Source of the DNA: Escherichia coli
GTDB taxonomy: Bacteria; Pseudomonadota; Gammaproteobacteria; Enterobacterales; Enterobacteriaceae
Length of the DNA: 64,000 nucleotides
Assembly: GCF_044324785.1 (NCBI RefSeq)
Contig: NZ_CP172127.1
Reading direction: 5' to 3' (one strand)
A program made the translations under genes and the position numbers. Under the pieces are notes generated by a model. The model saw nothing but the letters and a program-made list of their open reading frames with translations. It ran no database searches and was not told where the DNA came from. Every line of letters starts with the position of its first letter. Positions within the stretch are counted from its first letter, which is position 1. Positions 35,892 to 52,375 of the stretch are shown piece after piece.

Positions 35892-36229
35892 CATGACTCC
35901 TTGCTCATCGCATGAAGACTCCGAGAGTGAACCCCGTTAGAAAGGGTCACACGCATGCCCCAATACAAAATTATTTGCTCGCCTCTATCGTTGCCATTTC
36001 ATCAAAAGAGGAAAAGACAATGATAAAAAAGTTACAAATATGTTAATGAATAAACCAAATTGATCCCGTAATTATATTACGCCGCAAAATCCTTACAATA
36101 AACAGGTTTTTATTGAGCAAATTTGCATTTTTCGACAGTGATCAATTTATAGCGAAATTGTCACGACATCACCAATTTGATCTACGACAATTTATCGTGT
36201 TTTGCAGATTTTTTTCAAGAATTAAAAAT

Positions 36230-36243
36230 TGATTTATATCAAA
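36230..36243. promoter_or_regulatory. FNR-type site (TTGAT-N4-ATCAA) in the cydAB upstream region
   Basis: Perfect ttgatttatatcaa palindrome about 340 bp upstream of cydA in a long AT-rich leader; cydAB is FNR/ArcA-regulated. Confidence 0.4.
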
Positions 36244-36696
36244 ATCAGCCAAATATGTTAATTATGTATAAACCATAGATCATTGGTAATTTTATTGTTA
36301 ATTTATTGTGAAATATTTATGCAACACAATTATTACAATGAAAAAGTATAGATAAAAAACCAGTGTTTTATTTAACAGAACCGCCCTATCCACTTTTTAT
36401 AATACCAATTGATTAGAGTAGCCAATTTGTTGCTATTTTACATAACATATTTTTATCAAAGTTAATTGATTGTTGCCTTTATGAGCACCGACCGTAAGCC
36501 CGTTATGTTATTGTTTCATTAGTAATAATCACTTAAATGTATCGATAAAACAGGTATGACTTAGCGGGAGTGATTGTTTCTGAGTGAACAGAGGACACTT
36601 TCGCCTGATAAATGAAAAATGAGCGATTTTTGCAAGTTAGTTTTTCTATAGCCGAGTACGCTCAGCGCCTCGCTTGATTACAATGAGGTTGCTGCT

Positions 36697-37641
36697 ATGA
36701 GTCCTGATAATATCGGTTCGGCTGTCAATCGCTTCTTAGGTTGGCCATCTAATGATCCTCTAAAAACAGATAACGAATCAATGACATCACCCGTGACTGT
36801 GCAGGTAATAAAGATGATTGCCGCCATCCTTGACCCACATCGGATAGTCGTTGGAATCGATACACTTTATACAACGCAGCGCGAAACATTTACCTCAGAG
36901 AGTCAACAGCTCATTGAATCAGCATTGCAAACACTTCATGTGATGAATTTAAATAACCTGGAAACAAATCTCGATGAGGAAGGTCACTATCTGGCTTTTG
37001 GATATAACGTTGACACTCCTGACAGAATAACCGTTTCTGCTTATAATGAAAAAAAGCCTGGCTGCTATGGTCAATGTCTTTTAATACAGGATGACGAAAC
37101 AGACTTATTTAACCTGATAAAAGTTAAAATTTTTGAAACCAGGCATAATTATGTCGCTCAATTGATGAGCGATCCGGAATTTATGTTCAAATTTAGTTAT
37201 AGCGCTCAACAAAATAGATTAGAACCTCATCTTCTGGTTCCCACTTATTTCCCTCTAAAAACAAACGAACCGGTTACGCAAGAGGATGTACTGTTACTTT
37301 ATCGTTTCTTTAAAATGGATGGTGATTTTAATATATTAACATCAGATGAATACATGAGTATCATGACACCTCTGATGAAGTGTGAGCGCAGCATCCACGA
37401 CCACAACAGGTATGTGACGGGCAAAGATACCCTTCTTCTGGACTATCCTCCTTCTGGTAACCAGATATATTTCCATATTTTTCCTGACGAATCAGCAACA
37501 CTAGTCCTTTATTTTTCAAACAATGACATTGAATGTTTCGTCTTTGAAAGAGATATTCCGAGCCAGTATCGCTTTTTCAAAATGTTTACCAATCTGGCAC
37601 TGGTTATTGATCAGTTAACCGATGCCAATCAAATACTTTAA
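36697..37641 (+). CDS. Hypothetical protein (314 aa), no recognisable family, low G+C
   Basis: Long ORF with GAGG RBS 8 nt upstream of ATG; AT-rich codon usage unlike flanking core genes; N-terminus rich in Ser/Thr/Asn/Pro; absent from this position in K-12 as recalled. Confidence 0.5.
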   Translation: MSPDNIGSAVNRFLGWPSNDPLKTDNESMTSPVTVQVIKMIAAILDPHRIVVGIDTLYTTQRETFTSESQQLIESALQTLHVMNLNNLETNLDEEGHYLAFGYNVDTPDRITVSAYNEKKPGCYGQCLLIQDDETDLFNLIKVKIFETRHNYVAQLMSDPEFMFKFSYSAQQNRLEPHLLVPTYFPLKTNEPVTQEDVLLLYRFFKMDGDFNILTSDEYMSIMTPLMKCERSIHDHNRYVTGKDTLLLDYPPSGNQIYFHIFPDESATLVLYFSNNDIECFVFERDIPSQYRFFKMFTNLALVIDQLTDANQIL

Positions 37642-46470: not shown

Positions 46471-48123
46471 ATGTCCAAACCATTTATCTGGCAAGAACCG
46501 TTTCTACAAAATAAAGACGGTACAGAATATACATTAATTAGCGATCAACATATTACAGTAACGGAATTAGACGGCGAAGAAGTGATAAAAATCGCTCCTG
46601 AAGCATTAACGCTGCTTGCCCGGCAGGCATTTTATGAAGCCTCTTTTTTCTTACGTTCCGCTCATTTGCAACAGGTCGCCAGCATTCTTAACGATCCGCA
46701 GGCCAGTAGTAATGATAAATACGTTGCGTTGCAGTTATTACGTAATGCTGAAGTCTCAGCAAAAGGGGTATTACCCAACTGTCAGGATACCGGCACCGCA
46801 ACTATTGTTGCCAGTAAAGGGCAACAGATATGGACCGGAGGTAACGACGCCGAAGCCTTAAGCAAAGGCATTTACACCACTTTTCAGGAAAATAATCTGC
46901 GCTTTTCACAAAATGCGCCACTGGATATGTATACCGAAGTCAATACGCAAACCAATCTACCGGCGCAGATTGATATCAGCGCCGTCGCTGGTGATGAGTA
47001 CCATTTTCTCTGTATTAATAAAGGGGGCGGCTCTGCCAATAAAGCCGCGCTTTATCAGGAAACAAAATCCCTATTGCAACCAGAAAAACTGACCGCATTT
47101 TTAATCGAAAAAATGAAATCGCTGGGCACCGCTGCCTGCCCGCCTTACCACATCGCCTTTGTCGTCGGAGGGCTTTCAGCCGATCAAACCTTAAAAGTTG
47201 CCAAGCTGGCCTCAACGAAATATTACGACAATTTGCCCACCAGCGGAAACGCGCAGGGACAAGCATTCCGTGATATTGAGTTGGAAAAAGCGTTGCTCAA
47301 CGCCAGTCAGCAATTTGGTATTGGTGCGCAATTTGGGGGTAAATATTTCGCTCATGATATTCGCGTCATTCGTCTGCCGCGTCACGGTGGCTCTTGCCCG
47401 ATAGCTATGGCGCTCTCCTGTTCTGCCGATCGCAATATCAAAGCAAAAATTAACAAGCACGGTATCTGGCTGGAAAAACTCGTACACAATCCGGGGCAAT
47501 ATATTCCAGCCTCACTGCGGGAAGAAAATCACCCGCAACATGTACAGCTGGATCTAAACCGTCCGTTGCGTGACGTGATGCAGGATCTCGCCAGATTACC
47601 GGTAGGCACCCGCGTGTCGTTAAATGGTCCCATCGTAGTGGCGCGCGATATCGCCCACGCCAAAATAAAAGCGCGGCTGGATAGCGGCGAACCGATGCCG
47701 GATTACCTGAAGCATCATATTGTCTATTACGCTGGCCCGGCGAAAACACCTGAGAACATGGCCTGCGGTTCACTGGGTCCAACCACGGGTGGACGAATGG
47801 ACGGTTATGTCGATACCTTCCAGGCGGTTGGCGGCAGTCTGGTGATGTTATCGAAAGGTAACCGCAGCCAGCAGGTCACCGATGCCTGTCACAAACATGG
47901 CGGCTTCAATCTGGGAAGTATTGGCGGTGCAGCAGCGTTACTGGCGCAAGAATATGTCAAAAGTCTGCGTTGCCTGGAATACCCGGAGCTGGGTATGGAA
48001 GCGGTGTGGATGATGGAAGTGGAAAATCTGCCCGCATTCATCCTGGTAGATGATAAAGGCAATAATTTCTTTAGTCAGTTTGAGCAGCAACACCGCTGCG
48101 CCAGTTGCCCTGCGGGACATTAA
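46471..48123 (+). CDS. Class I fumarate hydratase paralog (candidate mesaconase)
   Basis: 550 aa nearly collinear with remembered E. coli FumA ([37 protein letters not shown]); located in the methylaspartate cluster. Confidence 0.85.
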
Positions 48124-48132
48124 GGAAAATGA

Positions 48133-48735
48133 ATGGAAGCGCGAATTTCAACTGAACGGCATGTGCAGCGCCAGCAGAAATTGAAGGAACAGGTCGATAC
48201 GCGCGTCGCGGCGGCGATAGAGAAAAAAGGGATCTTGATTGTTTTCACCGGCAACGGCAAAGGGAAATCCACTGCCGCGTTTGGTACTGTGACGCGCGCG
48301 GTGGGTCATGGCAAAACGGTGGGGGTTGCGCAGTACATCAAGGGGCAATGGGACAACGGCGAATACAACCTTCTCCAGCCGCTGGGGGTTGAGTTTCATA
48401 TTATGGGAACCGGTTTTACCTGGGAGACACAGAACCGGCAAGCGGATATCGACGCGGCGAAAGAGGTCTGGTCGGAAAGCAAACGGATGCTGGCTGACAA
48501 GCGTTACGACTTAGTGGTGCTTGATGAGCTGACCTATATGCTGGCTTACCATTATCTGGACACCGAAGAAGTGATCGCTTCTCTGCAAAACCGCCCGGCA
48601 CAACAAAGTGTCATTGTCACCGGACGCGGTTGCCACAGTCAGATATTAAAAATGGCGGATACGGTCAGCGAAATCCGCCCCGTCAAACATGCTTTTGATA
48701 ACGGCATTCAGGCGCAGCCGGGTATCGACTGGTAA
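48133..48735 (+). CDS. ATP:cob(I)alamin adenosyltransferase (BtuR/CobA family)
   Basis: 200 aa with IVFTGNGKGKSTAAFG P-loop; collinear with remembered BtuR. Confidence 0.85.
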   Translation: MEARISTERHVQRQQKLKEQVDTRVAAAIEKKGILIVFTGNGKGKSTAAFGTVTRAVGHGKTVGVAQYIKGQWDNGEYNLLQPLGVEFHIMGTGFTWETQNRQADIDAAKEVWSESKRMLADKRYDLVVLDELTYMLAYHYLDTEEVIASLQNRPAQQSVIVTGRGCHSQILKMADTVSEIRPVKHAFDNGIQAQPGIDW

Positions 48736-48768
48736 TAACTGCGCCTGGCATCCCGCCAGGCGCAGGTT

Positions 48769-49674
48769 TTACATCTCCTGCGGTACGACCGATTTCGCCA
48801 GCAACCATTCACGAAATTGCTGCAAGTGCGGCGAGTCAGACTTCTCTTCCTGCCACGTCATAATAAAACGATTACCGGTACGAATAGGCACATCACAGGG
48901 AATCACCATATCGCCACTATCCAAATCATGTTGAATAGCGAACCGTGGTAACAGCGCCACGCCGAGATTAGAGCGCACGGCGGCAATCAGCATTGAAAGC
49001 AAATCGAAACGTGGTCCGTTGTTGACCAGCGGACTGCTAACGCCAGATAAGGCAAACCACTCTTCCCAGCCAGTAATACGGGTACTTTGATGCAGAAGTG
49101 GTAACTCTGTAAGCAGTTCTGCCACTGACAGTTTTTGATCGGACATTGCAAGCAAACTGCCGCTGCATACCGGCAAAATCTCTTCTTCAAAGAGATATTC
49201 TACTTCCGCCCAGGGCGCGCAAAAATTTTCGCGCATAATGACAGCATCGTACTCCCGATTAAGAAAATCGCCGTTATTAGCTAAAGAGTGAATATTAACA
49301 ATAATATCGGGATGTAACTTTGTGAATTCATGTAAATTTGGGATTAACCAGTGGGTACTAAACGTAGGATTCACGGCAAGTTCAATAACCTGAACCGTAG
49401 GCTGCCAGGTCATAATGGTATTGGTATCGCGTTCCAGCTTATTTAATGTTTCTTTTACTATCCCCAGGTAATACTTCCCTGCATCATTAAGAAAAATACG
49501 TTTTTTAGAGTGTGAAAATAACGGAGTATGTAAAAATTCCTCCAGCGCACTCACTTGTCTGAATACTGCACTTTGGGTTAACGCTAACTCCTCTGCCGCT
49601 CTGGTATAACTTTCATGACGTGCGACGACCTCAAAAGTCACCAGCAGTTCCGTTTTAGGTATTTTCCCTCGCAT
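48769..49674 (-). CDS. LysR-family transcriptional regulator
   Basis: 301 aa with N-terminal LysR HTH (YTRAAEELALTQSAVFRQVSALE); convergent with the pathway operon. Confidence 0.8.
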   Translation of the reverse strand: MRGKIPKTELLVTFEVVARHESYTRAAEELALTQSAVFRQVSALEEFLHTPLFSHSKKRIFLNDAGKYYLGIVKETLNKLERDTNTIMTWQPTVQVIELAVNPTFSTHWLIPNLHEFTKLHPDIIVNIHSLANNGDFLNREYDAVIMRENFCAPWAEVEYLFEEEILPVCSGSLLAMSDQKLSVAELLTELPLLHQSTRITGWEEWFALSGVSSPLVNNGPRFDLLSMLIAAVRSNLGVALLPRFAIQHDLDSGDMVIPCDVPIRTGNRFIMTWQEEKSDSPHLQQFREWLLAKSVVPQEM

Positions 49675-49705
49675 AATGCCGTCCCTTAAAAATAGTTTAA
49701 ACCAT

Positions 49706-49723
49706 CAAAAATACATTACTTAT
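49706..49723. promoter_or_regulatory. Inverted repeat TTACTT-N6-AAGTAA upstream of the LysR gene
   Basis: Perfect 6 bp arms about 32 bp upstream of the LysR start; fits a T-N11-A LysR-type box. Confidence 0.3.
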
Positions 49724-50239
49724 TACGAAGTAATGGTAACCAAAGCAGCAATAAATAATTTATAAGAATCATGATTGACATTTATAACCCAGTAAGCCTG
49801 GCGTGACAAATATCTTAATCAGATAATAATAATCCGAAAAGCACAGCGCCTTTCGAATTATCCGGAATCACATTAAGTGAAAATTATTAAATTGATATCA
49901 TTTATCATATCTGTGGATATTATGATAAACAATCAACAAAGATTTTATTTTTGATTTATAGCATATCCCTCTAAGAATTTTTGCGATGCTGCAATATCCG
50001 GGGTAAAGACCCGATCCTGGCTGACAAATGGCACGACTTGACGATAAGCGGTGAACATCGCTTTTGTTGATTTACTTAACGCTACGGTCAAACGCTGGGA
50101 AGCCAGTGCATCAGGTAACGATTCGAAATTCGCCGTCGTTCTTATTCGTGGCTTGCGGTCGGTTGCGGCAATCCACAGTGGCTGTGGTCATGCAGTCAAG
50201 CCAGCGGTCAGATTTCGACCGTGGTTAACGTTTAAGGCA

Positions 50240-50339
50240 TAAAAAAGGCCATCATACGATGGCCAACCATGTCGAAACCGACAGCCCTTCGCCATTCCTG
50301 TAGAGGGAAGCGGCGAGGGCTATTTCTTATTACAGATAT
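50240..50339 (-). ncRNA. sdhX: sucD 3'UTR-derived sRNA (SdhX/RybD-like) with intrinsic terminator
   Basis: About 100 nt directly downstream of the sucD stop ending in hairpin ggccatcgtatgatggcc plus U-run on the minus transcript; identity by position and memory only. Confidence 0.45.
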
Positions 50340-51209
50340 TTATTTCAGAACAGTTTTCAGTGCTTCACCGATATCCGCCAGGCTGCGAACGGTTTTCACG
50401 CCTGCGGCTTCCAGAGCAGCGAATTTCTCATCCGCAGTCCCTTTACCACCGGCAATGATGGCACCTGCGTGACCCATACGTTTGCCTTTCGGCGCAGTCA
50501 CACCAGCGATGTAACCCACAACTGGCTTGGTAACGTGCTCTTTGATGTACGCAGCCGCTTCTTCTTCAGCGCTACCGCCGATCTCACCGATCATCACGAT
50601 CGCTTCGGTCTGCGGATCTTTTTCGAACATTTCGAGGATGTCGATAAAGTTAGAGCCAGGGATCGGGTCGCCGCCGATACCAACACAGGTCGACTGACCG
50701 AAACCGTAATCCGTGGTCTGTTTAACCGCTTCATAGGTCAGTGTACCGGAACGGGAAACGATACCCACTTTACCCGGTTTGTGAATGTGACCAGGCTGGA
50801 TACCGATTTTGCATTCACCCGGAGTGATAACGCCTGGGCAGTTCGGGCCGATCATGCGAACGCCCGCTTCATCCAGTTTCACCTTCACGGTCAGCATATC
50901 CAGCGTCGGGATGCCTTCAGTGATGGTGATAATCAGTTTGATGCCTGCATCGATAGCTTCCAGAATGGAGTCTTTGCAGAACGGTGCTGGTACGTAGATA
51001 ACAGAAGCGGTAGCGCCAGTAGCAGCAACAGCTTCACGCACGGTGTTGAACACCGGCAGGCCGAGGTGGGTAGTACCGCCTTTACCTGGGGTTACGCCGC
51101 CAACCATTTTGGTGCCGTATGCAATGGCCTGTTCAGAGTGGAAAGTCCCCTGGCTACCGGTAAAGCCCTGGCAGATAACCTTGGTGTTTTTATCAATTAA
51201 AATGGACAT
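50340..51209 (-). CDS. sucD: Succinyl-CoA synthetase alpha subunit
   Basis: 289 aa starting [18 protein letters not shown]; synteny. Confidence 0.95.
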
Positions 51210-52375
51210 TATTTCCCCTCCACTGCGGCAACAACCTGCTGAGCTGCATCCGTCAGACCTTTTGCTGCAATAATATTCAGGCCGCTGTCAGCCAGTTTCT
51301 TCGCGCCGAGTTCGGCGTTGTTACCTTCCAGACGTACCACGACCGGTACGTTAACACCCACTTCCGCTACCGCGCCGATGATACCGTCAGCGATCAGGTC
51401 GCAACGAACGATACCGCCGAAAATGTTAACCAGAACGGCTTTCACTTTGTCGTCAGAGAGGATGATTTTGAACGCTTCGGTTACACGTTCTTTGGTTGCG
51501 CCGCCGCCAACGTCCAGGAAGTTAGCTGGTTCGCCGCCGTGCAGTTTAACGATGTCCATGGTGCCCATCGCCAGACCTGCGCCGTTAACCATACAACCGA
51601 TGTTACCGTCCAGCGCAACGTAGTTCAGTTCCCACTGTGCAGCCTGTGCTTCACGCGGATCTTCCTGCGACTGGTCACGCATTTCGCGCAGATCAGGCTG
51701 GCGGAACAGTGCGTTGCCGTCAGCGCCCAGTTTGCCGTCGAGGCAAATCAGATCGCCCTGTTTGGTGATGACCAGCGGGTTGATTTCGATCAGCGCCAGG
51801 TCGCGCTCCAGGAAAATGGTCGCCAGGCCCATGAAGATTTTGGTGAACTGCTGAACCAGTTTACCTTCCAGACCCAGTTTGAACGCCAGCTCGCGTCCCT
51901 GATATGGCATCGGGCCAGTCAGCGGATCAAGCGCAACTTTGTGGATCAGGTGCGGAGTTTCTTCCGCCACTTTTTCGATTTCCACGCCGCCTTCGGTGGA
52001 GGCCATAAAGACCACACGACGGGAACTACGGTCTACAACGGCACCGAGATACAGCTCTTTAGCGATATCGGTCGCTGCTTCAACCAGAATCTGGTTAACC
52101 GGTTGGCCATTGGCATCTGTTTGATACGTTACCAGACGCTTGCCCAGCCAGTTTTCTGCAAAAGCACGGATGTCTTCTTTGCTGTTTACAACTTTCACAC
52201 CGCCCGCTTTACCGCGGCCACCAGCGTGAACCTGACATTTCACTACCCACGGACCGGCACCGATTTTTGAAGCGGCTTCTTCTGCTTCGCGCGGAGTAGT
52301 ACAGGCATAACCCACCGGTGCTGGTAAGCCATAGCGGGCAAAAAGTTGTTTTGCCTGATATTCATGTAAGTTCAT
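51209..52375 (-). CDS. sucC: Succinyl-CoA synthetase beta subunit
   Basis: 388 aa starting [18 protein letters not shown]; stop overlaps sucD start. Confidence 0.95.

Follow-up and report, generated by a model that had tools for sequence, protein, structure and literature searches.

The spacer between a LysR-family regulator gene and sucD in a 64,000-nt stretch of Escherichia coli DNA (contig NZ_CP172127.1; hereafter the window) very probably consists of three parts: an intact copy of the small RNA SdhX, a deletion scar made of pieces of the genes for HAL and RtcB, and the old HAL-LysR intergenic stretch. The junction beside SdhX is a hut/rtcB deletion scar, neither a remnant of mngR nor an island insertion site, and the scar is a case of ordinary gene loss, at an E. 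coli locus that varies strongly between genomes.

The spacer covers 665 nt (49675-50339). It is bordered on the island side by the LysR-family gene (48769-49674, minus strand; 301-aa ORF with Pfam HTH_1 at 7e-18 and LysR_substrate at 4e-28), which is the final intact gene of a methylaspartate (glutamate fermentation) cluster and carries the LysR label in all related loci. On the other side lies sucD (50340-51209, minus strand; 289-aa ORF), which encodes the succinyl-CoA synthetase alpha subunit, is the final gene of sdhCDAB-sucABCD and is labelled sucD in all related loci; its nucleotide sequence is 97.7-98.6% identical to loci L003 (strain WP2-W18-ESBL-08), L008 (2022H047), L009 and L010 (CUVET19-970). 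Neither the ORFs of the window nor the annotation place an intact gene between the two, the longest ORF found in the spacer by ORF scan has 63 aa, and RefSeq/PGAP lists zero features in the matching spacer of five E. coli genomes carrying it at 99.1-99.8% identity. An earlier reading of the letters alone (the sequence-only reading) had called the spacer non-coding and AT-rich toward the island, and both descriptions agree with these results and with the base composition: GC content is 0.23-0.35 across 49650-49999 (AT-rich up to about 49950) compared to 0.44-0.54 across 49950-50299. In two genomes, the locus tags jump by two numbers from LysR to sucD with no feature listed in between (RS20905 to RS20920 in strain N3, L002; RS19865 to RS19880 in strain 113, L013), a gap that newer annotations do not have. 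The older annotation of these two loci may have held two features, perhaps pseudogenes, at this place.

The AT-rich 270 nt next to LysR (49675-49944) align without gaps to L003 1876-2145 at 86.8% identity and are the former HAL-LysR intergenic region. Since this stretch separates the HAL 3' end from the LysR start in intact alleles, the LysR promoter presumably lies within it. Two inverted repeats are found in this LysR upstream spacer. The first, with arms within 49714-49735 (CATTACTT-N6-AAGTAATG), has kept its arms while its spacer changed in diverged hut-type alleles, which makes it a candidate LTTR autoregulatory box; the second, within 49901-49929 (TTTATCATA-N11-TATGATAAA), may be an old hut-operon terminator or operator.

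Protein-like translations on both strands, noted by the sequence-only reading at 49975-50260, are real; comparison by blastx with a five-protein set places them at 49945-50242 (E = 1e-22 to 2e-05) and resolves them into four fragments of two genes. Two fragments on the minus strand derive from a HAL/PAL/TAL ammonia-lyase gene (hutH-like). The C-terminal piece (49945-50085) covers residues 511-556 and the stop codon (41/46 identical, E = 1e-22), matches L003 2146-2283 at the nucleotide level and is 94% identical to L008, while the internal piece (50077-50138) covers residues 378-397 (18/20 identical, E = 2e-06) and matches L003 2626-2687 at 87%. The parent protein carries the Pfam domain Lyase_aromatic (PF00221, 2e-123) and is encoded by the final gene of a hut operon.

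The other two fragments lie on the plus strand and belong to an RtcB-family gene, whose intact product contains the Pfam domain RtcB (PF01139, 7e-95). The internal piece (50142-50198) corresponds to residues ~376-394, with a blastx alignment spanning residues 376-398 (18/23 identical, E = 3e-11), and matches L003 11769-11825 at 91% and L008 and L018 at 93%. The 3'-end piece (50199-50242) holds residues 451-465, i.e., 15 codons, followed by a TAA stop (13/15 identical, E = 2e-05), which in the sequence view falls inside the complement of the SdhX U-tract. This piece is 100% identical to L008 13128-13166. In L018 (strain 06-00048), an intact rtcB abuts sucD, and identity to this locus reaches 99.5% across 50199-50400, an interval covering the rtcB 3' end, SdhX and the sucD start.

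The nucleotide matches of the remnants are collinear (E = 1e-14 to 1e-140), and the fragments keep the order and orientation seen in the intact loci L003, L008 and L010. By similarity and collinearity, 49945-50242 is thus classified as HAL and rtcB pseudogene remnants. Only 66 of 556 HAL codons and about 34 of 465 RtcB codons are left, the latter in two different frames, and the parent gene start is missing from every fragment; neither remnant passed as a functional member of its family, and we infer that the gene scraps are non-functional. A Pfam search with both remnant ORFs, which are too short, returned no match.

The cydA-sucD interval occurs in at least nine structural alleles, one of them truncated by IS1 (L011). 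The intact order LysR - HAL - hutG - hutI - hutD - permease - hutU - rtcB - sucD is present in L003 and L010. The most complete allele, L008, reads methylaspartate cluster - LysR - hut - rtcB - mngB - mngA - mngR - sucD, and here the mngB stop codon marks the end of the island, at a distance of 5.6 kb from SdhX. Island and mngBAR occur together in L008, L009 and L017; mngBAR is absent from L003, L010, L018 and the window, and here the rtcB frame (...TFKA-TAA) enters the SdhX U-tract complement. Based on blastn end points, multiple alignment and the raw junction sequence, the structural alleles converge at 50237-50239, about 0-5 nt from the U-tract: homology to K-12 (mngR allele) starts at 50237 and to the TPR allele at 50239, whereas the rtcB alleles are continuous. 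The same position is the mngBAR-deletion junction relative to L008, and the variable region starts 2-4 nt past the last U of the SdhX terminator. Because all modules, mngBAR among them, are found together in L008, the junction at SdhX is the edge of a secondary deletion and not an island insertion endpoint. The earlier proposal of an insertion endpoint within a few hundred bp of a regulatory RNA was therefore right about the adjacency of the breakpoint (50237, 2-4 nt past the U-tract) but not about its nature. Alignment with K-12 sucD-mngR, which had been suggested as a check, gave a breakpoint adjoining the sucD terminator, with coding remnants present.

Several further differences between haplotypes were observed at this locus. 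L018 10428-10892 is a 465-bp segment upstream of LysR that resembles neither the window nor the hut-type alleles; it is also present in L009 and L017, which likewise have rtcB without hut, and in L018-type alleles homology to the window ends 18 nt upstream of the LysR start. Where mngBAR and the island coexist, the 3' part of mngB (L008 13313-13692 versus K-12, L001 542-921) is 83% identical, and mngB of L008 represents a strongly diverged mng allele class. For mngR, 551 genomes fall into the 90-95% identity band. At the other end of the locus, the cydA upstream region (35895-36267) is 79% identical to K-12, 80% to strain HH45 and 90% to strain S87, while alignments including the cydA coding region show 93-95% overall and K-12 and HH45 share 99.75% in the upstream region. 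This pattern indicates that the cydAB control region has deep haplotypes, which segregate with the variable locus.

Compared to the intact LysR-hut-rtcB-sucD alleles of WP2-W18-ESBL-08, CUVET19-970 and 2022H047, the window lacks 9.6 kb, missing through three deletions, the sizes of which were measured relative to L003; what is left differs from those alleles by 7-19%. D1 removes 342 bp inside HAL, in frame, across the imperfect repeat CTAAYGCCA. D2, with its junction at 50139-50141 defined by anchored alignments on both sides and by the gene content of L003, spans 9,081 bp (L003 2688-11768) from HAL to rtcB; it took out hutG, hutI, hutD, the permease gene and hutU completely, together with most of HAL and the initial ~375 rtcB codons. 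D3 removes 175 bp inside rtcB at a TCA(N)G microhomology. All junctions were resolved to the base, and at least two of the three show short imperfect repeats. Rfam and ORF scans of the hutU-rtcB spacer in L003 returned nothing.

While the relationships between the sequences, the junctions and the genome counts were observed directly, the order of events is inferred from them. The ancestor would have been arranged as cydA - methylaspartate cluster - LysR - hut operon - rtcB - (mngBAR) - sucD. Loss of mngBAR would have come first, so that the stop codon of rtcB came to adjoin the SdhX terminator; D1, D2 and D3 would then have reduced the genes to four small scraps. The scar block (49700-50200) shows 80-93% identity to every intact allele sampled, compared to 98-99% for the flanking LysR and sucD, so that none of the sampled genomes is its direct parent and the three deletions cannot be put in order. 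Neither the genome counts nor the loci compared contained deletion intermediates, but the scar fragments are too short and too diverged for megablast, and such intermediates may have been missed.

Across 5,426 complete E. coli genomes, the exact scar, i.e., the window-type spacer, is present in 835 and the methylaspartate ammonia-lyase gene used as island marker in 1,122. The 5' part of rtcB was found in 297 genomes (near full length in 290), HAL in 145 and mngR in 3,884. The sum of 835 scar genomes and ~290 rtcB genomes comes close to the 1,122 island carriers, which fits a split into two classes. Histidine-utilisation genes have accordingly been lost from most cluster carriers and are kept in 145/1,122.

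Compared to L003, identity per 100-nt segment is 97-100% through fumD, cobO and LysR and drops abruptly at ~49680-49700 to 81-93% in the scar, with a balanced substitution spectrum and unchanged GC content; L008 and L010 give similar identities. The more divergent rtcB alleles of L017 and L018 account for the rtcB 3' end (99.5% identity to L018), whereas the internal fragments, at 88-93%, are left unexplained by them. Comparison of six scar alleles gave 9 variable columns in 568 nt outside SdhX, two 1-bp indels included, whereas the same six alleles have 25 variable columns in LysR and ~36 in sucD. This low diversity fits a young haplotype of single origin, although constraint is conceivable. 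The two indels, at 50000 and 50228, break reading frames and segregate among the window-type alleles, as expected under neutral decay. Judged from this small sample, the scar may be a fairly old haplotype of single origin that has been moved between backgrounds via homologous recombination in the flanking genes.

A wider interpretation is possible, but we hold it as tentative. The 3' end of the SdhX terminator could be the hard edge of a multi-allelic cydA-sucD cassette hotspot, on which the nine or more alleles converge within ~5 nt presumably because deletions clipping the sRNA are selected against. The scar could in turn be an old single-origin haplotype, 7-19% diverged from all intact alleles, with an abrupt change at the LysR start codon and little diversity among the six alleles sampled. 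Recombination would have carried it into 15% of the sequenced E. coli, O157:H7-type genomes among them, and it was perhaps imported from a divergent Escherichia lineage. An exact-pattern scan of GTDB representative genomes found no donor of the scar and gave one match only, uninformative on scar type. This match (L012, DXKH01000067.1) is a human-gut 'Citrobacter sp.' MAG with LysR-HAL-hutG at 97.5% identity to the E. coli hut-type allele, and points either to DNA transfer in the recent past or to an E. coli contig that was binned wrongly.

Co-option of the scar, whether as an extended LysR leader or promoter fed by sucD read-through, as the source of an SdhX antisense RNA or as a small-protein gene, appears improbable. 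The scar block is at least 99% identical across hundreds of genomes and, as described above, hardly varies among six alleles; it contains two open frames, of 63 aa (50051-50242, plus strand) and 48 aa (49945-50091, minus strand), and the LysR gene, 565 nt past the terminator, is encoded on the same strand. However, the low diversity was counted against co-option, because it follows from the single origin of the structural allele. In addition, the two promoter-like sites found in the spacer compare with 2.3 expected from shuffles, and both ORFs simply follow the reading frames of the parent genes from TTG or GTG codons that serve as starts by chance. They have no Pfam match, and among scar alleles their frames are broken by the indels at 50000 and 50228.

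Even less credible is the idea of a classical integrative element, according to which the island would have entered by site-specific insertion where the SdhX terminator ends and would be flanked by att-like direct repeats. The convergence of all structural alleles within a few nt of the terminator U-tract superficially resembles a fixed attachment point, but repeats at the two ends, for which a check had been proposed, do not exceed chance: the longest direct match between 36150-36750 and 49900-50300 is 10 nt, and an 11-nt inverted match between the island ends is about as frequent as expected by chance (0.16-0.6 per shuffle). Neither an integrase nor a tRNA is annotated at the locus, the left border depends on the allele compared (36267 versus K-12, 36532 versus TPR alleles), and in the most complete allele the island ends far from SdhX, at the mngB stop. 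Finally, the suggestion that the protein-like stretches are decayed mngR, the K-12 occupant of the site, left by insertion of an island beside sucD, can practically be dismissed, although mngR is carried by 3,884 of the 5,426 genomes and in K-12 converges on sucD, its stop codon being separated by 3 nt from the homology start, because blastx of 49675-50345 (word size 2) found no similarity to MngR even at E <= 10 where HAL and RtcB match strongly, nucleotide homology to K-12 ends at 50237, and L008, L009 and L017 hold island and mngBAR side by side. Of the earlier proposal, the decayed coding remnants thus stand, with HAL and rtcB in place of mngR as their source. Remnants of MngR, MngA, MngB or the TPR protein were found at neither junction.

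SdhX (RybD) has kept its sequence beside the deletion scar. The sRNA starts directly downstream of the sucD stop codon (50340-50342, minus strand), runs on the same strand from 50339 to ~50240 and is, by blastn and multiple alignment, identical to K-12 base for base from the sucD stop through the U-tract. Its terminator, GGCCAUC-GUAU-GAUGGCC-U6, has a 7-bp stem with five GC pairs, a 4-nt loop and six U; a terminator scan located the hairpin GGCCATCGTATGATGGCC at 50264-50247 (minus strand), followed by TTTTTT at 50246-50241, and for the 104-nt 3'UTR a folding energy of -42.1 kcal/mol was calculated (z = -5.1 versus shuffles). Both the strong hairpin right after sucD and the presence of SdhX at this position had been proposed by the sequence-only reading, and both are borne out. 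An Rfam scan of 48000-52000 at E <= 1 gave zero matches, with no SdhX/RybD model, so that the identity of SdhX rests on the K-12 alignment and the literature.

SdhX was described by Miyakoshi et al. 2019 (PMC6393394) as an Hfq-dependent, 3'UTR-derived sRNA of sdhCDAB-sucABCD, which is cut out of the operon mRNA by RNase E, is bound by Hfq and acts on ackA, fdoG and katG as a base-pairing repressor; the authors also cite companion work on E. coli by the Gottesman group. That work places the seed just 5' of the terminator stem, and the window has the seed UUCGACAUGGU (core CGACAU) at 50276-50266 (minus strand), directly 5' of the stem. Counting from 50339, C34 and G62, the residues mutated in that study for katG and fdoG pairing, are present at the published positions, and the katG-pairing stretch at ~50299-50312, part of a region reported as Escherichia-specific, is identical to K-12. 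The check for an intact sRNA thus came out positive, and in carriers of the glutamate-fermentation cluster the sequence of this regulator, which connects TCA cycle and acetate metabolism, is untouched. A different situation was observed in strain S87 (L005 8004-8099), where SdhX lacks 7 nt (GAATGGC) of the 5' stem, has substitutions in addition (~90% identity) and adjoins truncated mngA and mngR pseudogenes. The 80-90% identity band of best SdhX matches comprises nine genomes.

SdhX and the glutamate-fermentation cluster with FumD have already been published, and the hut/rtcB remnants are ordinary pseudogene debris. The present analysis adds these remnants and the SdhX neighbourhood to the published cluster and amounts to an annotation-level correction; a literature search for hut/rtcB at this locus returned no relevant prior description. 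In a small way, the locus illustrates that a variable region can be bounded by a 3'UTR-derived sRNA together with its terminator, without implying a new mechanism. The window encodes glmS, glmL, glmE, mal, DUF1446/AtuA, a gltP-like transporter, fumD, cobO and the LTTR. According to the passages available from Kronen and Berg 2015 (PMC4682846), the methylaspartate/mesaconate gene cluster with FumD of E. coli O157:H7 comprises the same gene set; these passages describe the cluster and not the junction, and sucD, histidine and the island go unmentioned in them. With the intact alleles lacking mngBAR, the window shares the same junction between the rtcB stop and SdhX, and every fragment is collinear. 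Compared to K-12, SdhX occupies the same position after the sucD stop and has the same seed, katG-pairing stretch and terminator (100% identity), whereas beyond the U-tract the window continues with A/U and then the rtcB scraps, and K-12 with G/U and then the mngR stop.
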